Below, in pieces: positions 18,356 through 64,000 of a stretch of 64,000 nt of DNA. The stretch comes from Eledone cirrhosa (Eukaryota), in NCBI GenBank assembly GCA_964016885.1, contig OZ024749.1, positions 43,958,001-44,022,000 on the forward strand, written 5' to 3'. The notes beneath the pieces are model-generated. The model did no database searches, had not been told where the DNA came from, and saw only the letters and a list, made by a program, of their open reading frames with translations. A program made the translations under genes and the position numbers. The first letter of the stretch is position 1; every line of letters begins with the position of its first letter.

Positions 18356-20178
18356 AAGTGTGTGTGTGGGTGTGATTCCAATGCGTCTGTAGGTGTATAT
18401 TTGCATGTTATATAGTCAGCATCTATCCGTGTATATATATATATATACATACATACGGATAGATGCTGACTATATAATATAACATGCAAACATTCACGTA
18501 TACAATATGTATATAATAAGTACATGTTGATACTGTTCTTATTGTTGGGATAGGGTTTCTAGCGGGGTCGATTGTAAGGAAAGTGCGGTTGATTTAAAGA
18601 ACAAAAGCACATGAATTAACACACGGACGGGCAACGAACGGTAGTTGAAGTGAATTCGTAAAATACTCGAGGAATGTATAAGAGTGGGATTGCTTATGCC
18701 ATGACAACAATATATATAGAGAGATTTAATATAGAAATGCCCTAATGATTTCCTTCAAATGAAACAATTCTAGTCCTGTAGAAGCCATTTCTATATTAAA
18801 TCTTGTATATACTCTGTATATACCCCTGATTGAACCCGAGATACATACATACACACACACACATATATATATATATACACAAATTAAAACAAACGTTATC
18901 TTACTGCCTTGACCCTAATCCCAGAACTTTACACAATTTTACAGGTTTGTTTTTATTCGAAATGTTGGGTGATAACGAAAAGGCGCCGATCGGTAACAGT
19001 GCATATACACATACACACAGAAGTTTTGGTACAAACGAAAGAAAAGGGCAACCAACAGATATTTTTTGTCGCATTTGAAGGAACTGCATTTATTTACAGC
19101 CACAAAACTCTTTTGTAATCCATAAAACAATAAGTCAAACTGGTTTATATATATATAGAGGGAGACAGGAGTTTGAGACTGGTTGTCCATGGAAATTTCT
19201 TTACCAGATGATCTGGTCCTTATGGCTGAATCCATAAAAGAATAAGTTTCAAGTATGGAAACAGAATTTCGAATCAAAAGATCCTGTGCTAAAAGGTACC
19301 TGTCCAACTCATGTAAGCATGGAAAAACAGATTTAAAAACGATGATGATGATTGTATATATATATATATATATTTATTAAAATAACATTTTAGTCTTCAA
19401 ATTTATTATTATTACTATATATATATATATATATAGTACCGAATTAGTATATATATGTATTAGGGTGTCGGTAGATGTAAAGCCATAGCTTTTCAAGATA
19501 CCCCTCAATCTAAGAAAAGATTCTTCAAACTGATCATTGCCAGTGATAATTTCGAAAAGGAAAAATATCAGTTGGTTTTATGGTCTTCATGAAGGCTAGC
19601 AAAAGGTGGGCTGTTGGCAAGTAACAGAGCTGCTAGAAGCAGCAGTCAATTTCATCCTGATTTTTTACTCAACCATGACGGAGTACAGAAGATACATATA
19701 TATATATACATTTATATATATCGATATGAAAGACTAAATCCAGATTAAGGCGGTGTCCCAGCATAGTCGCAGTATGGCTGAAAGTATAAAAGAAAAATAC
19801 ACACACAAACACAATAGAGCAGTGGGTACCATATTTTGTCGTGGAGCCTTAAATAAATTTTACGGACAATCCCAACAACACACATTTTAATTAAATGAAA
19901 CAAAACTCGCATTCATTTTTTTTAAAGTATATTTTATTAAAAGATATCTTACAAAACAGGCTTTAAGGGAGATAACTACAAAAATCCGGAGTATTTTCCC
20001 TTTAAATGTTACTTTCTCTAACTTGTGTGAAGAGTATGTTGATATGCCAATGGTTTATATGCGTAGAAGAGGCTATTGTAGTGTAGTGGTATCTTTGGTG
20101 GATGTAATGTGTTGGTGAGTGCGGTAGTGATTGTAGGAATCACATACATTATATATACATATATATATATATATATAT

Positions 20179-20400
20179 AATTAGAAAGTGAACACAAAAT
20201 ATAACTACTCTATTACCAAAGGTTTCTGGATCACAGACGATAATATACGACCGATCCAGATGTATATTATCGTCTGTGATCCAGAAACCTTTGGTAATGG
20301 AGTAATTATATTTTGTGTTGTTCCCTTTCTAATTAAATAGCTCTGTTCTATACATAAAGCAGTCTTTTTTCTTTTGCTTTTCCTTCGGAATTACGTAACA
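20179..20400. mobile_element. Hairpin+tail element in (TA)n
   Basis: About 70-bp imperfect inverted arms bounded by AATTAGAAA / TTTCTAATT (20179-20334), followed by an ~66-nt tail, with (TA)n on both sides. Confidence 0.65.
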
Positions 20401-21228: not shown

Positions 21229-22305
<1,077 letters not shown>

Positions 22306-27215: not shown

Positions 27216-37789
<10,574 letters not shown>

Positions 37790-38254: not shown

Positions 38255-38551
38255 AATTGGCTGTCAGAAGTGAAAGTAGAAGAATGTGACGTCATTCGTC
38301 AACCTTGTCAATCGTCAAACCTTCGTTTATTTCCGTACCACCACCCACCACCATGTGTAATCGGCCCCATGAACTTCATTTGTTTTCTAATTTGATAACT
38401 ATGACTATGGATCAACGTGGTGATTTCAAAGTTTATTTATTTACACATGGTGGTGGTGGTGATACGGAAATAAACGAAGGTTTGACGATTGAGAAGGTTG
38501 ACGTCACATTCTCTTACTTTCACTTCTGACAGCCAATTCCGTTGTAGTGCC
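38255..38551. mobile_element. Foldback MITE with CACTA-like terminus, upstream of PSMA1
   Basis: About 100-bp inverted arms (38255-38360 / 38441-38538). The right end CCGTTGTAGTGCC reads GGCACTACAACGG on the minus strand. Contains two TGACGTCA and ATTGG/CCAAT motifs. Confidence 0.7.
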
Positions 38552-39779: not shown

Positions 39780-42700
39780 TTAGGTAATATGGTTAGTATC
39801 AGACACTGAGTCATTAGAACAAAACAGAACTTTACACAGGGCATCATTATTTTGCAAAGGTGTGTTTTTTGTTGATGAGGAAATTTGACTTAAAGAATAT
39901 AAATATTTTCTTTTATTCTTGAAGCATGGTTCTTGTGTCTGACTGAATACATCAGGTGATTTCAATGAGTCATCTTGTGTGTTTTTCTGTGTTGGAGAGA
40001 AAATATCAGGGGACAGTAAATATTGCTTTATATTTTCGGGTGTGTGATTAATAGGACCAGCTGAAGGTAAATAGCCTTGGTTGCTTTCCTGTGTTGGAGA
40101 AAATATATCAGAAAGCGATTGGCTACGAGAGTTGTTCTTTGTTTCATAGAATATATCTGGTGAATGTACAGAACTGCCTACATTTGTCTGTGTTTCGGGA
40201 AATATATTGGGAGTGTCATTATGTACAGAAGTGTTTTCCAATGTAGGGGGAAATATATTGACTGACTGTGAAAGAGTTTGTGTATTTGGGTAGGTCTGAG
40301 AAGAATCTTTAGAAGGATGTGAATAGCTATTTACATCTTGTGGCTGAGTATAGAATATATCAGGTGAAGCATAAATATCTAATGTTCTATTACATGATTT
40401 TGGTATCCTTTTACATAAATAGGTATTATTTTGTACTTTAATATTGGCTTTAATTGAATTTTGATCTGCTACTGTAAGAGTTTCTTGTAGGAATTCTGTA
40501 CTTAAAGGACCATTTTTAATATCACAGTTAATTTCTTTAAATAATTTAGGGGAGTGCATTTGCTGTTGACTTTCATCTATTTTAAATTTAAAACAGGACT
40601 GAAGTCTGTTGTCTAAACAAATGGTATTTGTGTTTTGAAAAGTAAATAAGTGTTTTGTTTCATCTTGTGTTGCGAGAAGAATTTCTGGAGAAAATAAATC
40701 TTGTTTTCCTGGAACAGTTTTACGAATTAATTCTAGTTCAGGTGATTTTTCCATATTTTGAAAACTGTTTTTCACTGTCTTAGAAATTATTAAAGAATTG
40801 CATTTAGAAATTTCTTTTGAGTTTACATAATTTGTAGCTTTAGGTGAATGGATGTCATTTTCAGACAATGTTCTTTGAGAGAACAAAGACTTGAAGTCTG
40901 TAGAATTTTCTGTTACTCCTTTAGATGAGTGAATAAATGCTTGATCTTTTCTACTGTGTTGCTTCATGGGTGAAAATGGTATATTGGTTGTCTTTGGTAT
41001 GGTATTAGAAGGAGAAAGTTTTTTCGTTTGGCATCCTGATTGAAGCAGATTAGAGTTATTGATTTTCTTGAAAATTTGTCTTTTCAAAAGGATTTTGGAT
41101 AGAACATTTTTAGACTTTTGATGATTAAAACTTTTACTAATACTATCTCTGGTATTTATAGAAATATTTCTCACTGAAACTGGAGTATTACTGGGCGTTT
41201 GTGGGATAAAATGATTTGAATATTTCAACGTAGAATTAAATAGATCTTCTGAAGTATTGCTTGACAATATGATATCAGTTGGATGAGGAGATGGTAAAAA
41301 CAGTTCAACTGAAGGATCCCATAACACTTGTGATACACCACCTTGTTCTTTGGGACTTTCTTGGGTGACTTGTTGAAGACTCACAGATGGTGATAACCGA
41401 GACTCAGAGATGCAACCATCAAAAGAAAAAATTGAAGGGGAATTCGAACAACATTGCCTTTGGTTCTCTGAAGATCTTTTAATTGGGGTTATTGGAAATA
41501 TATGTTCAATATTTTCTCCATCTGAAGAATGTTTTTGTGGCAGATTTATATATGATGGTTGATAAATATGGGGATGTGAAAGTGGTGTAGATGTAAGACT
41601 ATGGCATTTCCTAAGATTAACACTGGATGAGAAGACATGAAATCCAGTAAGAGAATTATCAATGTTTTTATGTGGTAATGACAAACAAGTGCGTTTATTT
41701 GAGGTGACCGCATTTGTAACTCTAGGAGAATATGGTAAACTTGAGAACTGATTTTTCATGGTTGTAGGTGAGATGATGTGGGACCTGTTAACTGGGATAG
41801 ATTGTTGATTTCTGTTCCTTGATCTTGTGGTCTTGTTTACAAACTGTTCAATTTGAGATATATTTTTATTGTTGTTTTTACTTACTTTTTTAGAAAAACA
41901 TAACTTTTCTTTTTTTCCATTATACAATAAATTTTCTTTATTTTCTGTAGAATCATTGCAAAGACACAGTTGAAGATATAATTTACAAAGGTTACATTTC
42001 TTCCTTCTCTTAGATTGATTTAAGGCAGACGATGGTCCTCTTTCTAAGTCAGAATCTTGTTTAGAAAGACACTGTGTTGGTGAATAGGTTATTTCTTGAA
42101 AGTGAGGAAGCTGTTTTGAAGAAGTGGATAAAGAACTGTCATGAGCAAAATTAAGCAGTTTCTTAACTTTGTTTCCAAATGGAGAATCAGAATTCATAGA
42201 AGTGGTACTTCCATTAATAGAATCATCAGCAGATAACATTCTTTTAATATGAAACCGAGAGGGGGTTATGGCTGAGAGATTAATTTCTGATATATCTTCA
42301 GGAAATATATTGCAAATATTATCTGAAAGACTGAGTTTTGGTGATGATTCTTCAATATAGCTAACCTTTGACTTAATTGTAGAATTAAGTGTGACCATAC
42401 ATCTCTTAGTAGACTGTGGCTTGAGTACATGTTCATTTGTAGAACCGATTTTTGTAGGATAATTATTAAATATATTAGAAGCATTTTCATTATTTGAATG
42501 AGTTTTAGTTACAATTTTAACTGGACCAGGTAATAAACATAAATCTGTACTTTTATCAAAACGTTTGATATCTTTCTTCATAATAGTTTTTCTTGGGGTA
42601 ATTTTATTTCTAGTCTGAATAAACTGGTTTGTTTCATTCAAATTATGATTGTGGAACTTGAATTCTGAATACTGTATCATATTTCCAATAGATTGACGAT

Positions 42701-44309
42701 TACTTTTCTTTAATTTGTCACTGTCTTTGTACCTTGGGTTATTGGAGACTAAAAAATTGTCTTTCCAGACACATTTTAAAAAACGATAAGGAACTGCCAA
42801 GTTGAGAAGGAAATACGTTACAGTTGATGAATGGAAGCTTAAAAGAGAAAGAATATTTATCTCCCTTGTTTTCCAATAAATCATTTCTATTGTAAGATCA
42901 CAAATATCTCCAGTCCTTATATTGTTTGCAGTCACCATAGTAAAGGCATTCAAATTAGACTTATTGCCAGAAGCTACATTGAAAGGTGTTTCAAAATTAT
43001 AACCTTCTAGAAAACACATCTCGTTTTTACCAGATTGCGTTTTGTGCATTTGATTTTGTTCAGTCTTTTCATGAAATTCAGAAAATTGTTCATGTGAAGA
43101 ATGTGGGGAGTTGTTGAAGCTGTTTAAGAAGGCCTCCAAGTCTTCTGATTCAGGAGCATATGAGACATGATTGTTATTTACATTCATAGAACATTCCATA
43201 GAATAATCTTCATGTGAAGTGGGTAATCCTGGTAAATACTCATAATCTAAACTTGGAGAGTTATTCTTATCTAAAATGTTTTCGCAATCAGAGATGCAAG
43301 AAATAATTTCTTTATTCAGATTATCAGCAAGAGAAACTTCTGGAAGAGGATGCTTTTCCATAGTAAGATGTCCACATTGAACTTTCTCATCAGATAGAAG
43401 CAAATAATTTGATATATATCCTGCTTCCAAATCAGGAGAACTATTTATCATGAAAGATTTGGAAGTTTGTGTTGAACATGATTTTGTTACAAGATAAAAA
43501 AGATCTTTTGTTGTACATGAGTTTATTAAACAAGGGGTTTGGCTTATTCCTGAATTTGATATCAATATTTCTGAGCAATTACTGCTTGTTTGACTCCCAG
43601 ATGGATTCTGTTCACAAGTTAAAACAATTAACTCTTGAGAAAGTAAAGGAAAAGTGGAATTGCAATTGGTTCGCTCTATAAATATCGATGGTACTAGTGG
43701 AGCTGATTCTATTGATTTTCGAAGAGATGATTCGATAACTGTTGGAGGAGGAGGACTGTTTTGAGTTTCAATACTGTTAATCCTAGTCAGATGCATTTTA
43801 ATTGTGTATCTGGTATCAATACTGCAATTGATCATCTGAGAGGCAATTATGTTAGTTGGAAGTGTCTCGCAATGTTTTCTACTGCTCTTCAATACCGATA
43901 ACAGTGAAATGCTGGAATCAGATTCTCGAAGAGGGAGCAAAGTTTTAAAACCAAACAAAAAACTCTTCCCGGTAAAAAAATCATTCAGTAAATTCAATAT
44001 ATCTTTCGAATCATACAAACAAAATAAAGAATAAATCTCATTTGCAGAGTCTCCAAAGTAAGGTTCCAGTATTTTGCCAAAGACTGTAGCACTACAAAGA
44101 GCAGAGCTGTCAGCAATTTCAAGAGTAAGTCGGTATCGTTGAGGAATACTACATGCATTGTAGCCTATTTTACATTGTAAACAATGCCAATTTTTAGAAT
44201 AATTGTTTTGTAGTTTAGTGTAACATTCAGTACAATATGGATAGGTCACTTTAGGGTCAAGAACTTTGATCACTGTAGCCACAATTAATGCATTGTGTCT
44301 AGATGGCAT
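39780..44309 (-). CDS. DDIAS: DNA damage-induced apoptosis suppressor (noxin)-like, 1509 aa, single coding exon
   Basis: N-terminal RPA1-C-like zinc OB fold (IVATV...YPYCTECYTKL...CLQC...RYRLTLEIAD...TVFGKILEPYFG) matching the DDIAS N-terminus as recalled, then a long S/T/N-rich disordered region. A splice acceptor at 44346-44348 upstream of the ATG implies a non-coding first exon. Confidence 0.8.
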   Translation of the reverse strand: MPSRHNALIVATVIKVLDPKVTYPYCTECYTKLQNNYSKNWHCLQCKIGYNACSIPQRYRLTLEIADSSALCSATVFGKILEPYFGDSANEIYSLFCLYDSKDILNLLNDFFTGKSFLFGFKTLLPLRESDSSISLLSVLKSSRKHCETLPTNIIASQMINCSIDTRYTIKMHLTRINSIETQNSPPPPTVIESSLRKSIESAPLVPSIFIERTNCNSTFPLLSQELIVLTCEQNPSGSQTSSNCSEILISNSGISQTPCLINSCTTKDLFYLVTKSCSTQTSKSFMINSSPDLEAGYISNYLLLSDEKVQCGHLTMEKHPLPEVSLADNLNKEIISCISDCENILDKNNSPSLDYEYLPGLPTSHEDYSMECSMNVNNNHVSYAPESEDLEAFLNSFNNSPHSSHEQFSEFHEKTEQNQMHKTQSGKNEMCFLEGYNFETPFNVASGNKSNLNAFTMVTANNIRTGDICDLTIEMIYWKTREINILSLLSFHSSTVTYFLLNLAVPYRFLKCVWKDNFLVSNNPRYKDSDKLKKSNRQSIGNMIQYSEFKFHNHNLNETNQFIQTRNKITPRKTIMKKDIKRFDKSTDLCLLPGPVKIVTKTHSNNENASNIFNNYPTKIGSTNEHVLKPQSTKRCMVTLNSTIKSKVSYIEESSPKLSLSDNICNIFPEDISEINLSAITPSRFHIKRMLSADDSINGSTTSMNSDSPFGNKVKKLLNFAHDSSLSTSSKQLPHFQEITYSPTQCLSKQDSDLERGPSSALNQSKRRKKCNLCKLYLQLCLCNDSTENKENLLYNGKKEKLCFSKKVSKNNNKNISQIEQFVNKTTRSRNRNQQSIPVNRSHIISPTTMKNQFSSLPYSPRVTNAVTSNKRTCLSLPHKNIDNSLTGFHVFSSSVNLRKCHSLTSTPLSHPHIYQPSYINLPQKHSSDGENIEHIFPITPIKRSSENQRQCCSNSPSIFSFDGCISESRLSPSVSLQQVTQESPKEQGGVSQVLWDPSVELFLPSPHPTDIILSSNTSEDLFNSTLKYSNHFIPQTPSNTPVSVRNISINTRDSISKSFNHQKSKNVLSKILLKRQIFKKINNSNLLQSGCQTKKLSPSNTIPKTTNIPFSPMKQHSRKDQAFIHSSKGVTENSTDFKSLFSQRTLSENDIHSPKATNYVNSKEISKCNSLIISKTVKNSFQNMEKSPELELIRKTVPGKQDLFSPEILLATQDETKHLFTFQNTNTICLDNRLQSCFKFKIDESQQQMHSPKLFKEINCDIKNGPLSTEFLQETLTVADQNSIKANIKVQNNTYLCKRIPKSCNRTLDIYASPDIFYTQPQDVNSYSHPSKDSSQTYPNTQTLSQSVNIFPPTLENTSVHNDTPNIFPETQTNVGSSVHSPDIFYETKNNSRSQSLSDIFSPTQESNQGYLPSAGPINHTPENIKQYLLSPDIFSPTQKNTQDDSLKSPDVFSQTQEPCFKNKRKYLYSLSQISSSTKNTPLQNNDALCKVLFCSNDSVSDTNHIT

Positions 44310-45096
44310 TTTGATTTTTCCAAATCTGGAGATTATAGAAAATACCTGAAAAATAAAATAAAAGTGAATATTAATTAATCAGTAATTAATTTATTTATCT
44401 ATTTAATCAATTTAAAAGTATATATAAAGCTGGTAAGCTATGACAGACTTGAAAGGGTATCTAATATCTAAAAGCAAAGATAACTATAAAGTAGTTAAGA
44501 AGTTAGAGATTTAATCAAAATTTAGCTGACCTCCTACGATGTAGCACGTCATAGATTTGTTTTTTTTATAAACAAGGACCGTAAGTCTAGTTTAGTGTAA
44601 AGTTTAGTTTAGTATCAAGTTTAGTGTAAAAACAAAAACAAAATTAATTTTAGGGCTAATGTTTCCCTATATATCTATGGCTGTTACAAGTGATAAGAAA
44701 AAAAAATGGCACTACAACGGAATTGGCTGTCATTCGTCAACTTTCTCAATCGTCAAACCTTCGTTTATTTCCGTATCACCACCATGTGTAAATAAATAAA
44801 CTTTGAAATCACCACATTGATGCATAGTCATAGTTATCAAATTAGAAAACAAATGAAGTTCATGGGACATACGTCAAAACGGCCGGTCTGAAAAGTGAAA
44901 CTTATTTTTGACAGTTATGTACGTCATTAATTTCAATTTGGTTTGTGAATAGCTGCATGTACAAATACAAGACGTATAATGCAACAATAGAACATTGAGT
45001 TGTAGCAAGGGCAAAATAAGAAAAGAGAGTTTGCAAGGGAGATAACTAAGAGTAATCAGTGTCACCTTGAAGTTTCGACACCGGACAAAAACATAC
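44310..45096. promoter_or_regulatory. Probable bidirectional promoter, DDIAS/NDUFB6
   Basis: Divergent start codons are only ~790 bp apart. Confidence 0.55.
44708..44866 (+). mobile_element. Partial second copy of the CACTA-like MITE
   Basis: GGCACTACAACGGAATTGGCTGTCA...; reverse complement of about 38366-38551 with a small deletion. Confidence 0.7.
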
Positions 45097-56667: not shown

Positions 56668-59600
56668 CTACAACTGAAATAGTTTTATGTATAAAATGGT
56701 TAACACTACAAAAATCCAACTGATTCGGAATGAAGACGCTCCAGCAATTCGGCATTTTAATGTGTCATACCTAAAAAAGAATTAAGCAGAAAAATTATAT
56801 CAGTGAGGACATTTTTCTTATTGTTACAGAGTGACATTAAAGCTTTCTGGGTAATGAATAAATAAAAATATTATAAGGGATGGATCTTATCTTTGAGGGA
56901 AGAGTAGATTGTGTGATGCCTGCATCAGGAGTGCGATGTTTCATGGAAGTGAGACATGGGCAGTAAATGTAGAGGTTAAAGAGAAATGAAGTGAGCATGC
57001 TACGATGGATGTGTGATGTTCATGTATGATGAGGCGTCGATGAACTGATAGAAAAGCTATGTATAAGAATAATCAGATATAGTGCACGAGAGTGAAGACT
57101 GCACTGGCATGGATGATCCCTGGGTAAAGCCAGGAGATAGCTGTGGAATGAAGCTACAATAGAAGAAGTGGTGGCAGTAGTCTTACCTGTTAGCTTCATT
57201 TCTCATCTTTTTGTTGTATTCTTCAACCATTGTCTGACCATTGTAATACCACTGCAGATCATTAAATGGATATTCATAGCCCTGTTTACATTCACACTTG
57301 TAGGAGCCTTCCGTGTATTTCAAATGAGATTGTAAAGGAACACACTGGAAACAGGAGAGAATATGACATCTTAACCAAAGAGAAAAAAAAAAGTCATATT
57401 GCTGGGGGTGCTGCTGCTGCATTCCCCAACAAAAAATTGTTGTCAGAAAATTTTTAAATTTTCCAAAAATATTGTATACTTTGATCATTTATTTTAATTA
57501 AACAAAATATAATAAAATATGTACAATACAATAATGAATAAAGATGTCATAATAATTGTTTCTACTTTTAGCACAAGGCCAGCAATTACCCAATGCATTA
57601 CTGGTACTTTATATTATCGACCCCGTAAGGATGAAAGGCAAAGTTAAATTCGGCGGGATTTGAACTCAGATCATAAAGATGTCATAATAATAATTGGCTA
57701 GCATAAAAATTATGAACATCAGCAATCCCCCAAAATGATACAAGCAATAGGCTTATCATCTTAACCCTTTTGATACCAACCCACATTAAACCACTCCTGG
57801 TTTAATGAAACAACTATTCATAATGTTCAAACTTATATTAAAACCTTCCCTCATAATTTTATAATAAATGGGCAAAGAAGAAGACATATACGTACACACA
57901 CATTTACATATCATATATTATTTTTACAAACACTATATAAAATTAAAGCAGCTTACATAAGTGGTCTCATAGTCACAGCGAGCAGTGCTTTTAAAGGCAT
58001 TGGCTACATAGAAGCTGGCAGGGCATTGATCGAGATCTAAATAATTTATGTCGACATCAACTGTAATAACACCCCTGAAATTGAAAACAAAATGAAACTG
58101 AGGATTATTAAAGGTTGACAAATGAGAACAGAAATACAGAAAAAAGATTAGCTAGAAGCTAGGTGTATAGCTCATGCTCTAGGCATGCACTTAGAATTAG
58201 ATGGACAGCTCATATAACAAATGAATGTCTAGTTCTGGTACTACAATGAAATACACCCAGTACACACTGTAATGTGGTTGGTGTCAGGAAGGGCAACCAA
58301 CCCTAGAAACCATGGCAAAATGGAACATATTAAGTTAGCTGTGGACTCCAACCTATCTAGAAGGACATTATCACTGATTAAATAGTGATCTGGTCTGTAA
58401 TTATCCAGATGTAAAATGATGATGATGATGTCAAACCAATACAAGGATGGAAAAAGGATGTAAAAACAATGGTGATGATGATAATGAAAGTATATAGATA
58501 ACTTACTTAAATTCAATTTGAGTCTTCAATGTATTTGTTCCAAAAAATGGCACAACATAAGTGAGAACCCAAGCATTAACTCGGTCATCACACTTAAACA
58601 CAGGGCGTAACCATTCTCCATCTTCGTATTTCGGTGCATAATATGTGAGAGGGTAATACTCGAATCGTATTAAACTGGACCCATTGATGTCCGACCGCAT
58701 CATTGGACGAGTTATAAATTTCTCCAGTGAATGATAGTTTGTAGCCCAACGAGATTTCATGTCCGTAAACCAACGTTTATCAGTATAACGGTCTTTGAAA
58801 CCAGCAAAATCAATAACTCGGGATCTTGTCTTATCTCCAGTTTTCCAAGCAAATGGACCAAAGTATTCCCGCGTTACTTCATTTACATAACGTGGATCGG
58901 TATTATTTCCAGGCGATATCCGATATTTATATTGATCAAAGAATATACCAGAACCAAGTATCTTGAAGTCACTCATTACAGTAGCTATAACCTCTCCATA
59001 CATTTGTGTATCGTGTAAACGACGATCACCTCTAAGAATACCAAATTCTTCATACTCGTCAACATTTTGAAGAAAATTACTGAGAAAATGGGCAAGTCTT
59101 AGTGCAGATCGCCCTTGAGATTCAAACTGCTTCTCAGCACCATAGCCAGCATCTCCAGGAAGAAGCAGTTGGTTTGCTGTTAGGTGTTTGCAATTATCTT
59201 TTGTTGTTTTCTGTTTACGTTCAATAATTTCTCTCATTCTCATCCACATGACATTGTCAAAGAGATCTCGTTTCTTACGAGAAAGATTGCCTTCTCTGGC
59301 AACAAACCGTCTAGCTGTGCTGGTCTTTAAGGGAATGAAATCTTTTGAAGAGTACTCCATATTTGGCGCAATCCATCTCAAACTCCTGTGAGCAGTAGGA
59401 AATATAATTTTCAGAAACTCATCATGTTTTGAACTAAAAGATGCTAGGGATCGTTTCTTAACGTTTTCAATGATTTCTGGGTTCTTTTTAGGGATCACCT
59501 GGGCAACTAGAGATAAAGAGAAAAAGCAAAATTAGGTGAATTTTATTCGCTCTTATCTAAAACAGAGCCAGAGAGACATACTCACAGAAAGTTAGAAAGG

Positions 59601-61041
59601 AAGAGATGCAGAAAAATAAAGAGAGAGAGAGAGAGGAGAGATAGAGGGACTGAGAGTACATACAAATAATATAAGCAATAAAAAATGTTAAAAAAATACT
59701 GAATTTTCTTACAATCAACTGGGACACAGTCAAAGCCATTCTCATATTCCTCTTTAGTAGAAGCTTCTATTTCTACTCCAAGGAAAGGTCCATCATGCCA
59801 CCAGGGGTATTTGTATAAAGGTTGACATGCACACATGTAACTACCACGTCGAAAACCAAATCCACTCAAAGGTTCACACTGAAAAGAATATTATACATTT
59901 TTAGATTTTACAGGCAAAACCAACTGGGAAGAGACACAGGTGTAGATCCCGAGAGCAAAATAGTTGAATAGCATCCATGAGCACAGCTGCTCTCTCTTGG
60001 AGAACTAATTGGATCAGTTGGAGATGGTTGCTTCTGACAGGACCCACTGGAAGCCGTGTTTGAGGACTCTGCTCCCACAACTCTCTCAGGAATAAGTGAG
60101 CGATGAAAAATAAATATTCTACTGAAACTCAGTAACAACAAAGAGTAATCTCAGTAATATAAATATTTTGACTACCTTGGTATTGAACATTTTTTACTCA
60201 TGTTTGGCAAAAAGCACCCAGTACACACTGTAAATGTGGTTGGCATTAGAAAGAGCATCCAGCCGTAGAAACCAAGTCCAAATCAGTTCTGTCCCCCAAC
60301 CTGATCCCTCATAAAGGGACATTCCGTCCTACCCATGCTAGCGTAGAAGATAGACATTAAACAATGATATAACAACAATGAGGTTTCCAAATGCTAACAT
60401 ATGAACATATGTGTGAGTTTCAACATCATTGTTTAAAGTCTATTTTCTATGCTTGCATGGGTTAGACAGGTTGTCACATTTTGAGGCTACACTAATCAGG
60501 TAATCATGTCATGCTCATGCGCTCCATGTTTGGCTTGGTTTATATGGCTGGATGCCCTTCCTGTAAGGTGGTAGTGTTGGTGTCAGAAAAAATGCACCCT
60601 GCTCACCCTGTCAGATGGTTTGCATCAAGAAGAGCATCCAGCTATAGAAACTATGACAAATATGGACTGTAATAAGCAACATTGGTTGCTCTGACCCATC
60701 TTATCTCAGTAACAATCCATCCAACCCATGCCACCATGGAAAGGGGGGGGGGGGGGCATAAAATAATGATGATGAAAGCAAAACAACCTTTTCTCATCAA
60801 ATCACCTCCCATCTTACAATTAATATGATGATGATGATGATGATGATGATGACCACTATTGCTGTCTGTCCATCTCTCAAAGATTTAAAATAAACCATTC
60901 TTACCAGAGTGGTAGACTTGCATCGTGCTGTGCCAGCAAAATAGTTTGGTGCGGGGTTTCCTTCAGATGTTGGGCACGGATTAAAGTCAATGCGTTCAAA
61001 TTCCAGATCAATACTTGTAACAGCCACAAACCTAAATAAAG

Positions 61042-61090
<49 letters not shown>

Positions 61091-61154
61091 CCGGGGAAGG
61101 AAGTGTGGTATATACATGTATATATATGTGTATTCAATCTGCCACCCACCCCAT

Positions 61155-61199
<45 letters not shown>

Positions 61200-61371
61200 A
61201 AAAGAGTCAGGACCTTGACGGCTGAGCTCCAGCCATTTCGACAGCTAGATTCGAAATAGCCGGAGTTCAGCAGTTGGAGTCCTGACTCTTTTCCTATGAC
61301 CCACTCTACTACCCTAAGTATCGAGTACTCTGGTGCGTTATGGTCCACCTGGTATCTTACCACACCTTCTT

Positions 61372-61449
<78 letters not shown>

Positions 61450-61497
61450 ATCCAACCCATGCAATCATGGAAAAGGGGACGTAAAAACGATGATGAT

Positions 61498-61535
<38 letters not shown>

Positions 61536-61935
61536 AATATACACGGGTGTGTATGATTGTGTATAGAAAATTATATTAATATAATGAACCTGAAGATTGC
61601 GAAAGCATGAAAGTACTTGTTCAATTAATACTTAACATTTAATATTCTACCATACTATTTCATTCTAATACCATTATACATTTTAAAGGATTGTAAATAA
61701 AACGAGTAAATCAGACAAAGTTGGAATTCCTTTTATTAATATATATATATATATATATAACGAAGGAAATGTGGTAAGGAACCAGGTGGACCATAACGCA
61801 CCAAAGTACTCAATACTTGAGGTAGTAGAGTGGACAATAGGAACCAGTAAGACCCCGACAGCTGAGCTCAAGCCGTTTCGACGGCTAATTCTGTCGAAAC
61901 GGCTTGAGCTCAGCTGTCGGGGTCTTACTGGTTCC

Positions 61936-61967
<32 letters not shown>

Positions 61968-63783
61968 GAAATATATGCTATCGCCGTATTTTGACTAAAG
62001 AAATTATTTAGCCTGATAGTGGGGTTAAGAACCCTCGGAGAAATGGAAAAAGATGATGTGTTGGTGTAATGATAGCACAGTGGTCTGGATAACCGCAGAT
62101 GTGGGTTCGACTCCCATGTACGTCAATACTCATCTTTTTCCATTTCTCCGAGGGTTCTTAACCCCACTATCAGGCTAAATAATTTCTTTAGTCAAAATAC
62201 GGCGATAGCATATATTTCTAATTTCAAACTCGCTCGCTGTTTCGAAAACATTCTTACCTATATATATATACACACAAAAACTCCAACAAACTAATCAAAT
62301 TGAAGCAATTAAATATTGAATTTTTTTAAAATCCAGCGATTCAGCTCTGCGGCGTCTGGGGCGAAAACCACACTATTCGGCAACTAGCTTGAAATCAACA
62401 ATATCCCTACATCTCTTTGCCAGGCACTTAGCATACATTTTACCAGGGAGGCTTAACAAGGAGAGCCCTCTTTAATTGGAGAAAGCTGTCTTGTCTCTCT
62501 TTTTGATAATTGAGATTATCACTCCCGATTGCCATTGCTAAGGAGCCTTTCCAGAGAAGCAGGGTTCCTGGCACACTTAAGTAAGCCAGAAATACTTCCT
62601 CTATTTTAGGCTTTTAACATCTCAGGTCGAAATTCATACTCCCCAGATGCCTTACTACATTTGAGCTCTTTAATTGCTCTTGTGACTTCAACCTCCAAGA
62701 GGACAGTCATCGCTCCCAGTATGAGTCTAATTACCCTTACCGGGTACCAAATAACCATACTTAAGATATAAATATTTAAGTGGATAAAATATATACTTAC
62801 TGAGGTCTTCTTAAATGGGTAGAGTTTGAATAGCGAGGCATAAATTCAACAACAGGAGCTGTTGCACTGACAATCCACTTATTTGTTCGTCCACAATCAA
62901 AGTAAGGATCAGTGAAGACAACAGGAAGATACATTTGTTCTAGACTCCCTGGTTGAGGAGGACCAAAGAAAGACGAAACTTGGAAACCATCAGTGACAAA
63001 TTCACCTGTCTTCTCCGATCTTCGAACACCAACATTATAGGTATACTTCCTAAGAGTGTCCAAGTTATTGTTCAAATCAGGTAACCATTTACTGTACCAA
63101 GGGCTGTGTTTATAGGCTGGATTGCTGTAGTTGTGACTACGGCCTGCTCCATAATCGTGAATGTCAATTGTATTGTTTGTGGGTTCCCGCAACCAATTTG
63201 TGGGTTCGTTGTAGTCATCTACCCGCCAAGCTTTAGGGCCAAAGAGAGGCAGAGTATCGTTCAATCTCATCGTAGTGTACCAATTAGGGTATGAACAGTT
63301 GTTGTCAAAAAACAGTCCACTGCCGTTTATCATACTAATTCCAGCAGACACATCGGCGGCCAGAGAGAAGTAAATATACTCAAACCCTGGTTGTTTTATT
63401 AGGGCTTCGCTCTTGTTAAGTTCCTGATAGATATAACTGAAATAAAATGCCCGGTTAAGAGCCAAGTTGTGAGCGTGCAAAAGACTAGATCTGTTCGTGT
63501 AATAAACGGTAGAGAGGAAAGTATTATAACGAGGTATTTGAGATACAACGCCTTTCAGAAGGTTGGTGTCTAAACGAAGGTCTGTATAATGTTTCGAACG
63601 ACAATTATCTCCTGTTACCGCTGTAAACTTTTCCATTATCTCATCAAAGTTATCCTTAGGAGAAAGTTCAAAAGGTTGAGCGTCAATTAAAGGACCATTC
63701 CAAGAAAGTAAATATGCGAATGTGCAAACAAATATTATAAATATTGTGTTGAGGCCGCCACTATAACTCGGCCTCAGCTCCAT
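56668..63783 (-). CDS. Secreted/GPI-anchored protein with two tandem GPR158/GPR179-like ectodomains (Cache-like + EGF-like), 884 aa, 7 coding exons
   Basis: Exons 62801-63783, 60905-61031, 59713-59878, 58507-59506, 57957-58074, 57187-57344 and 56668-56770; GT-AG, phases consistent, 2655 nt. N-terminal hydrophobic signal. Motifs PYFDC...[15 protein letters not shown]...F..TARC and [18 protein letters not shown] resemble the GPR158 ectodomain and occur twice. C-terminus is [25 protein letters not shown]. Confidence 0.8.
61195..61378 (+). mobile_element. Hairpin+tail element in (TA)n, copy 1
   Basis: Hairpin 61195-61297 plus an ~80-nt tail. Confidence 0.7.
61585..61623 (+). ncRNA. Minimal type-I hammerhead ribozyme motif (Penelope-type)
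   Basis: TGAAC-CTGAAGA-T.TGC.GAAA.GCA.T-GAAA-GTAC-TT-GTTCA: stem I TGAAC/GTTCA, conserved core, GAAA-capped stem II, palindromic stem III AAGTACTT. Confidence 0.7.
61759..61938 (-). mobile_element. Hairpin+tail element in (TA)n, copy 2 (inverted relative to copy 1)
   Basis: Perfect 46-bp arms 61837-61938; tail homologous to 61298-61378. Confidence 0.7.
61963..62258 (+). mobile_element. Perfect 94-bp inverted repeat element with tRNA-like loop and 35-nt tail
   Basis: Arms 61963-62056 and 62130-62223 are exact reverse complements; tail 62224-62258; (TA)n on both sides. Confidence 0.8.
62055..62125 (+). tRNA. tRNA-like cloverleaf (GGA at the anticodon position), probably a pseudo-tRNA or element head
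   Basis: Acceptor GATGTGT/GTACGTC, D GTGT/GCAC, anticodon GTGGT/ACCGC with loop CTGGATA, 4-nt variable loop, T arm GTGGG-TTCGACT-CCCAT, discriminator A, and T5 about 10 nt downstream. Confidence 0.55.
62340..62745 (-). mobile_element. Degenerate LINE RT N-terminal fragment
   Basis: Minus-strand [18 protein letters not shown] matches the pre-RT 'EV..AI..LK..KA.G' motif. Confidence 0.5.
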
Positions 63784-64000
63784 TTTTTTTCTGCTCCTCT
63801 TTCTTATTTTTATGTAGAAAGATTTATCACAAATAACGTTGAATAAACAGTATTTACATAGATGATATATAAAACACCTTCATTAGAACATACCTTCAAC
63901 CACCTGTAGCATATTCAAAATGGCTTCTGATAATTAAAAAAAAAAGGTAATAAAAAAAATTAAAACAATAACAATGTCACCAACCGTCTAACAACAGGTA

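Follow-up and report, generated by a model that had tools for sequence, protein, structure and literature searches.

Insertions of Penelope-like elements (PLEs) are described as 5'-truncated, arranged in partial tandems, accompanied by an inverted 5'-truncated copy, provided with a tail of 30–40 bp on one side only and biased towards (TA)n (Craig et al. 2021, PMC8557442; this and all other sources are cited for the passages covered here). In vitro, the protein of one PLE was found to cut and extend both strands of AT-rich DNA, reverse transcription was found to start at two adjacent internal sites of the RNA, the interval between which corresponds to the tail, and the reaction proved independent of hammerhead cleavage (Frangieh et al. 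2024, PMC11167929). A hairpin with a one-sided tail, set in (TA)n, is an architecture already described for PLEs (PMC8557442, PMC11167929). A stretch of 64,000 nt of the Eledone cirrhosa genome (contig OZ024749.1, positions 43,958,001–44,022,000 of the forward strand; referred to as the window, and numbered from its first letter) contains seven inserts of this kind, whose families share with PLEs the 5' truncation, the partial tandems, the inverted truncated copy, the one-sided tail, the (TA)n or AT-rich target and, in most of them, a predicted hammerhead near the 3' end (PMC8557442, PMC11167929). It is very probable that these inserts are 5'-truncated copies from at least five coding PLE families and one non-coding, tRNA-bearing family, and that the hairpin was likely built at insertion. 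The unusual member is family C, at 61963–62258, the others being largely explained by known PLE biology.

Seven inserts and the coding elements behind them

A sequence-only reading of the window had listed six sites at which an inverted repeat carries a tail on one side, and had proposed that they share a PLE-type mobilisation targeted to (TA)n, as opposed to being miniature inverted-repeat transposable elements (MITEs) with terminal inverted repeats (TIRs). All six sites were recovered, with tails of 35–78 nt, and the proposal of PLE mobilisation is upheld. Element A (61195–61375, plus strand) consists of an inverted arm (61195 to about 61245), a sense arm ending at 61297 and a 78-nt tail (61298–61375); its arms are about 80% identical over some 50 bp, its sense arm is the 3' half of a hammerhead, and it represents the 3' end of a Hydra-type PLE. 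Element B (61759–61938, minus strand) has a 78-nt tail (61759–61836) and two arms (61837–61884 and 61891–61938) that match at 47 of 48 positions. The sequences had been thought unrelated, but A and B are members of one family (A/B) on opposite strands, with 78% identity over 168 nt. Between them lies a seventh insert with tail and inverted arm that had been overlooked, element H (61542–61743), in which a minus-strand tail (61542–61576) is joined to a longer inverted arm (61581–61743). It corresponds to the 3' end (the pseudo-long terminal repeat, pLTR) of a PLE with a CX4CxxC linker and a GIY-YIG domain, and it contains a predicted minimal type I hammerhead motif with a palindromic stem III (61586–61622, plus strand), of which stems I and II fold. 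Element C (61963–62258, plus strand) comprises an inverted arm (61963–62056), a tRNA-like module, a sense arm (62130–62223) that matches the first at 94 of 94 positions, and a 35-nt tail (62224–62258). The clustering of three of the listed elements in one intron beside a hammerhead was also borne out: a 1.77-kb intron on the minus strand (61032–62800; GT at 62800, AG at 61032), which contains A, H, B and C, joins two exons in frame.

The other three inserts are dispersed. E1 (11157–11271, minus strand) is an extreme 5' truncation of a hammerhead-bearing PLE, with a 57-nt tail (11157–11213) and arms (11214–11240 and 11245–11271) that pair over 27 of 27 bp; a lone arm of the same family, without a tail, is found next to (TA)n at 31855–31890 (minus strand). 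E2 (20179–20400, plus strand) is the 3' end of a Hydra-type PLE and has arms of about 70 bp (20179–20248 and 20262–20334), the centre of which falls in a hammerhead, and a 66-nt tail. E3 (33099–33293, plus strand), from the 3' end of a PLE family that is older and decayed, has an inverted arm of about 45 bp (33099–33145), a truncated body and a tail of about 42 nt (33252–33293). Its flanks hold just a few TA dinucleotides, so that the claim of (TA)n flanks is weak for E3 in the window. In 58 evenly spaced 10-kb samples of the genome, (TA)4 lies within 25 nt behind 19 of 26 tail ends of the families, compared with 6.9% of random positions. As for the termini AATTAGAAA/TTTCTAATT, said to be shared by two families, they are indeed common to E2 and C as a 9-bp boundary, although BLAST finds no further similarity between the two.

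As judged from their sequences, families A/B, E1, E2, E3 and H derive for the most part from coding PLEs by 5' truncation and are not MITE-like, since all five continue upstream into GIY-YIG or reverse transcriptase (RT)/GIY-YIG frames. Endonuclease frames lie upstream in each of them, and the C-terminal region of the RT in H and E3, the frames being partial or broken. In family H, a promoter-like untranslated region (UTR) is followed by an RT-thumb, the CX4CxxC linker and a GIY-YIG frame (L144, L160 and other loci; loci read elsewhere in the genome carry L numbers); the nearest Atlas clusters of this frame are HTH_animal + GIY-YIG at 0.96, and a comparison with the PDB gave 0 matches. The exact terminus of E1 is located 480–500 nt behind the end of an endonuclease, with a hammerhead in between (L076, L265, L291 and likewise L195), and E3 is preceded by a decayed RT and endonuclease in L120 and by an endonuclease in L128. 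For A/B, a genome pattern for the intact hammerhead returned 53 matches, mostly chance joins, and its reversed control 0; the intact-hammerhead copies L200, L201, L204 and L215 have a long UTR in common, and L201 and L221 lead to a GIY-YIG frame with CxCX5C, CxxC and CxH but without CCHH, for which GIY-YIG appears at rank 13 in the Atlas, at 0.95. A first upstream search from E2, which has an intact hammerhead motif, returned hairpins only; three loci have a Hydra-type endonuclease piece inside the E2 insertion itself, in sense orientation but with a deletion in L364 and inverted in both L371 and L357. Hammerhead motifs are thus found in H, E1, E2 and the long A/B copies, none of them reaching the Rfam cut-off and cleavage being a prediction, and a pattern search revealed none in E3.

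The inverted pieces of L371 (800–1190) and L357 (1000–1415) derive from the upstream coding region and not from the 3' end, and presumably resemble the twin-priming inversions of long interspersed nuclear elements (LINEs). Other PLEs surfaced as well. One further family (L282:1900–3770, L268 and L107:1101–1440) has a linker/GIY-YIG frame, a CCAAT-rich duplicated UTR and a 66-nt tail, with no canonical hammerhead by pattern search. At least five more tail-bearing PLE ends (L267, L278, L227, L198, L228, L146, L077, L087 and L107:830–1060) mostly accompany Hydra-type frames or hammerheads, several of them having a tail like that of E2 but another hairpin body.

The Hydra clade has been defined by a CxCX5C linker, the lack of CCHH, CxxC and CxH motifs around a conserved E and N, and insertion in (TA)n (PMC8557442). 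By their linker motifs, A/B and E2 would belong to it: both endonucleases have the CxCX5C linker and A/B also the CxxC and CxH without CCHH, the E2 fragment ending before the CxxC/CxH region. All five coding families are further members of PLE kinds already known. The sequence-only reading had considered the families non-autonomous, which fits family C, shown to be a non-coding unit, but not A/B, E1, E2, E3 and H, as these five of the six run into PLE 3' UTRs followed by endonuclease or RT-endonuclease frames. The tails are conserved between copies.

Several points weigh against this picture. No intact full-length element or RT core was retrieved, and the coding links consist of broken or partial frames. 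Matches to Pfam GIY-YIG stay below the cut-off (E = 0.0077 for the H frame, and 0.17), and three other frames have no match. The link of A/B to its frame depends on L201 and L221 plus one diverged relative (L142), and of the three pieces behind that of E2 one has an internal deletion and two are inverted. A short non-autonomous subfamily may exist inside A/B. Lastly, three of the tails (57, 66 and 78 nt) lie above the 30–40 bp given for PLEs (PMC8557442, PMC11167929). The coding links nevertheless contradict the idea that the families are DNA transposons, either TIR MITEs in TA sites or derivatives of Helitrons or Helentrons with subterminal inverted repeats, since all five lead to hammerheads and/or GIY-YIG frames. 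Inverted repeats with TA flanks are what such elements would show, and TIR subfamilies, too, should have arms that match within a copy, but the arms here measure from about 10 to more than 200 nt, one is often missing, the bodies are 5'-truncated, and with one arm subterminal there are no fixed-length termini at both ends as in a TIR MITE. No transposase or Rep/helicase was seen in the loci read, among which no search with a Helitron protein was made. A DNA-transposon origin is accordingly given next to no credence.

Copy statistics and the origin of the hairpins

First-look searches of the genome returned 1695 candidates for C, 327 for B, 478 for E1, 1887 for E2 and 439 for E3. A random sample of 58 evenly spaced 10-kb pieces (580 kb) of the 3.0-Gb genome contained 36 insertions (A/B 10, C 3, E1 7, E2 8, E3 4, H 4), which extrapolates to about 186,000 insertions of the six families (95% range 130,000–257,000). 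A second set of 153 tail-bearing copies was assembled without regard to 5' structure, copies too near a locus end being dropped before counting and the C copies including 30 loci that had been chosen for their 3' 103 nt. In 137 of the 153, the tail gives way at once to a TA or CA run, and an inverted arm is present in 81. By family, the numbers of tail-bearing copies, of TA or CA runs and of inverted arms are 71, 68 and 44 for A/B, 14, 13 and 5 for E1, 15, 15 and 4 for E2, 7, 2 and 3 for H, 40, 33 and 25 for C, and 6, 6 and 0 for E3. Outside C, an inverted 5'-truncated arm accompanies 56 of 113 tails (E3, with 0 of 6 in this set, has hairpins elsewhere). Many copies lack an inverted arm, and where there is one its length varies between copies from about 10 to more than 200 nt. 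The 5' ends vary as well, those of A/B lying mostly 40–65 nt upstream of the tail boundary, and the 3' ends of the tails are fixed in (TA)n. The first nucleotide of the inverted arm coincides with the tail boundary in 31 of the 44 A/B arms and in all 5 of E1; of the 25 arms in C, 18 begin between 6 nt before and 3 nt after it, and three C copies have tails on both arms. Matches to microRNAs in Rfam were all below the cut-off.

Within a copy of A/B, the two arms differ on average at 0.93 of 44 nt, compared with 4.64 between copies (30 copies). Of the 44 A/B copies with an inverted arm, 24 have one that outreaches the tail strand on the 5' side and 15 one that falls short of it, while in 5 the two end level, which argues that inverted arm and tail strand are two independently truncated strands and not simply the snap-back of one cDNA. 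Snap-back as the sole route was rejected on the additional ground that the inverted arm is the longer one by more than 10 nt in 12 of the 44, as well as in element H of the window. Junctions between the arms cluster at hammerhead stem II in A/B and E2, and at short palindromes on the 3' side of the tRNA in C. In L133, L097 and L196, the sense strand of A/B opens with a long T run at the loop of stem II, as though an antisense RNA with a poly(A) stretch had been copied or slippage had occurred on an A/T tract.

A different explanation would be that the hairpins are fixed, MITE-like non-autonomous derivatives of PLEs, transcribed and moved whole together with their tail. The concentration of A/B at one size, with 5' ends mostly in that narrow interval upstream of the tail boundary, and the identical junction of many of the top A/B matches would be in line with this. 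This junction, however, recurs on at least five subfamily backgrounds with varying loops, and the query used in the genome search for B selects its own junction. Moreover, hairpins account for only 9 of the 36 insertions of the random sample at the threshold used, and long copies with the full hammerhead, the UTR and a reading frame do occur. Whole-hairpin mobility is hence regarded as very unlikely, and formation at insertion as the explanation to be preferred. In the model that we infer, both cut ends of the (TA)n target would prime separate cDNAs on the element RNA, one starting at the end of the tail and the other at the tail boundary. Both would stop early, often at the hammerhead stem or the 3' side of the tRNA, after which short palindromes would be the points of their head-to-head junction. 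For family C, the same PLE protein would act in trans on transcripts that are long, tandem or read-through.

Family C, a non-coding unit with a tRNA module

A complete tRNA-like sequence, also overlooked, occupies the loop of element C (62054–62126, plus strand). ARAGORN and Rfam both report it, the latter as RF00005 with 46.4 bits against a cut-off of 29; it has A- and B-box-like motifs and is followed by a T5 run. The unit of the family (C1) is ordered spacer, leader, tRNA, trailer, arm and tail and measures 258–269 nt, and it forms multimers in which the unit is closed (L156, L157). With the reference of C1, 11 of 52 rows run through the spacer into the tail of a preceding unit, and with that of the sister family C2, 4 of 32 do so, the others ending earlier; no other shared sequence was seen upstream of the spacer in the copies compared. 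The longest stop-free frame of C has 75 codons. The tRNA module sits in the slot in which the other families have their hammerhead. The hammerhead core CTGANGA is absent from both strands of C1 and C2, which also disposes of a scrambled hammerhead, and a hammerhead-cored ancestor of C was discarded as well, a genome pattern for such a form giving 11 matches, none of them a hammerhead.

The sister family C2 (L256, L262 and L324–L353; 1151 first-look candidates, partly overlapping those of C1) combines the same leader–tRNA–trailer module with an arm, a tail of about 58 nt and a spacer of its own, in a unit of about 290 nt. In comparisons of four copies with four, C1 and C2 are 83% identical in the tRNA, 78% in the leader, 89% in the trailer, 67% in the arm and 65% in the tail, shuffled sequences giving 46–62%. 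The Rfam tRNA model is above its cut-off in both. Neither is taken as a working tRNA because ARAGORN reads C1 as Ser(GGA) and C2, whose anticodon loop differs, as Ala(GGC), and because the variable arm is short. Across 29 copies, 92.8% of the cells of the cloverleaf and a leader–trailer stem of 16–20 bp taken together are paired, compared with 34–56% in slid controls, and this pairing has been kept mostly by one-sided changes compatible with G-U. Selection on the module is likely. On the other side of the scale, covariation in the cloverleaf does not rise above that of shuffles (137 of 500), with one compensatory pair, and 46 of 49 copies have a run of T5–T7 behind the tRNA.

The insertion anatomy of C, with a TA or CA run after 33 of 40 tails and an inverted arm in 25 of 40, makes it highly probable that the family is mobilised by PLE machinery, and C is likely a SINE-like element (SINE, short interspersed nuclear element) moved by a PLE. 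Against this counts that no autonomous partner was found: in a comparison of the unit with the 3' UTRs of part of the genome's PLE families, Naiads lying outside it, the best local score was 35 and the shuffled maximum 39–43. The support for PLE mobilisation of C therefore comes from anatomy alone. An 18-nt match between the C tail and a PLE UTR (L268, L282) lies within the shuffled scores and was set aside. Could C be a conventional SINE of tRNA origin that is mobilised by a LINE, with hairpins and tandems resulting from later recombination in (TA)n? The tRNA-derived region with its two box-like motifs, the missing partner among the UTRs compared and the abundance of LINE fragments in the window and the loci are all compatible with this. 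Yet the tRNA is internal to a circularly permuted unit and does not form its 5' head, most copies start at or after the 3' end of the tRNA, the unit itself lacks any poly(A) or repeat tail, and the inverted arm begins at a constant tail boundary in 18 of 25 copies, a trait shared with the five PLE families. Mobilisation of C by a LINE is accordingly held to be very unlikely.

What the module contributes to an element moved by PLE machinery can be answered with less assurance. It is quite possible, at slightly under even odds, that it serves as a putative RNA polymerase III (Pol III) promoter element by which transcription of source loci is maintained. This role is weakened by the T5–T7 run, since Pol III transcripts should end before the tail. 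A pile-up of 5' ends at the start of the tRNA (16 of 52 rows) was discounted because the search queries select for it: among the 30 copies picked by their 3' end, the tRNA 5' end coincides with the start of the copy in 1, most of them beginning at or after the 3' side of the tRNA. No RNA data set was listed as containing the C unit, and matches in two contig runs were taken as presence only and not as expression of the unit. An RNase P/Z cut site replacing the hammerhead is a second, rather unlikely putative role, and it is somewhat more doubtful again that the module is a mere passenger. The composite proposal, that C and C2 are a PLE-dependent counterpart of SINEs in which the tRNA module replaces the hammerhead and host RNase P/Z would cut multimeric transcripts, is put forward as a speculation that is more probably wrong than right.

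Several described systems resemble C in part. Non-LTR retrozymes (10.64898/2026.07.22.740005; LTR, long terminal repeat) and MRC1-type Chlamys elements (PMC8557442) are likewise non-coding tandem units of about 250–300 nt, dispersed as monomers and multimers and ascribed to PLE machinery. Retrozymes, however, have a type I hammerhead in each unit where C has a tRNA cloverleaf in the equivalent slot (10.64898/2026.07.22.740005), and MRC1-type elements have a 3' sequence in common with a partner (PMC8557442), none being found for C among the UTRs compared. From PLEs themselves C differs in lacking both frame and hammerhead. The schistosome repeats Sm-alpha and Sj-alpha (PMC6765202, PMC2770079) are, like C, tRNA-derived, short and tandem-forming lophotrochozoan repeats; they are Pol III-type, as C may be. 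Sm-alpha is tRNA-Gln-like, has a promoter and a hammerhead and was described as SINE-like (PMC6765202, PMC2770079), whereas C has its tRNA module without a hammerhead and shows the inverted-arm and tail insertions of PLEs, none of which are reported for Sm-alpha in the passages covered. The terminal-repeat retrotransposons in miniature (TRIMs) Helenus, Ajax and Cassandra (PMC10886601) are also non-autonomous retroelements other than SINEs with a segment derived from a small-RNA gene (tRNA or 5S), but there the segment lies in the terminal repeat of LTR elements with a primer-binding site and a polypurine tract, while C has PLE-type ends. With SINEs, C shares the tRNA region with A and B boxes, but neither the 5'-head layout nor a 3' tail related to LINEs or made of simple repeats. 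In the literature searched, outside which lay Repbase, Dfam, subscription journals and supplements, no passenger of PLEs was found described that bears a tRNA and lacks a ribozyme. A repeat survey of O. vulgaris (PMC13282606) mentions many unclassified SINEs and PLEs and no such anatomy in the text covered, and its supplements may hold such families.

Genomic setting and significance

The repeats and genes of the window appear cephalopod-like. The intron that received A, H, B and C belongs to a multi-exon gene (57183–63879, minus strand) with two similar extracellular domains, which is weakly GPR158/179-like (Pfam PF22572, E = 0.07, below the cut-off). E1 is contained in a (TA)n-rich repeat of about 8 kb with an assembly gap (5586–13599). 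Two more inverted repeats are present in the window, a hairpin at 38281–38512 with arms of about 95 bp, which has no (TA)n flanks and matches none of the families tested, and a short perfect inverted repeat centred on a TA tract at 18408–18476. The minus strand also encodes a C2H2 zinc-finger array of about 11 units with an 84-bp period (21229–22305) and a 1532-codon open frame with a Cys-rich, OB-fold-like start (39780–44378), which may be DDIAS-like and is possibly a single large exon or a retrocopy.

Annotation can easily mistake hairpins of this kind for MITEs, SINEs or microRNA precursors. Five of the families are ordinary PLE biology, and the roughly 186,000 insertions of all six constitute a large natural data set, with tails of up to 78 nt, for the two-primer model of how the PLE tail arises. 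Family C, for which Sm-alpha is a near precedent, provides a direct test of the role of the hammerhead slot in PLE RNA. A tRNA-bearing, ribozyme-free passenger of PLEs, if this is truly what C is, would fill a third slot beside SINEs, which are the passengers of LINEs, and the small-RNA TRIMs, which are those of LTR elements.

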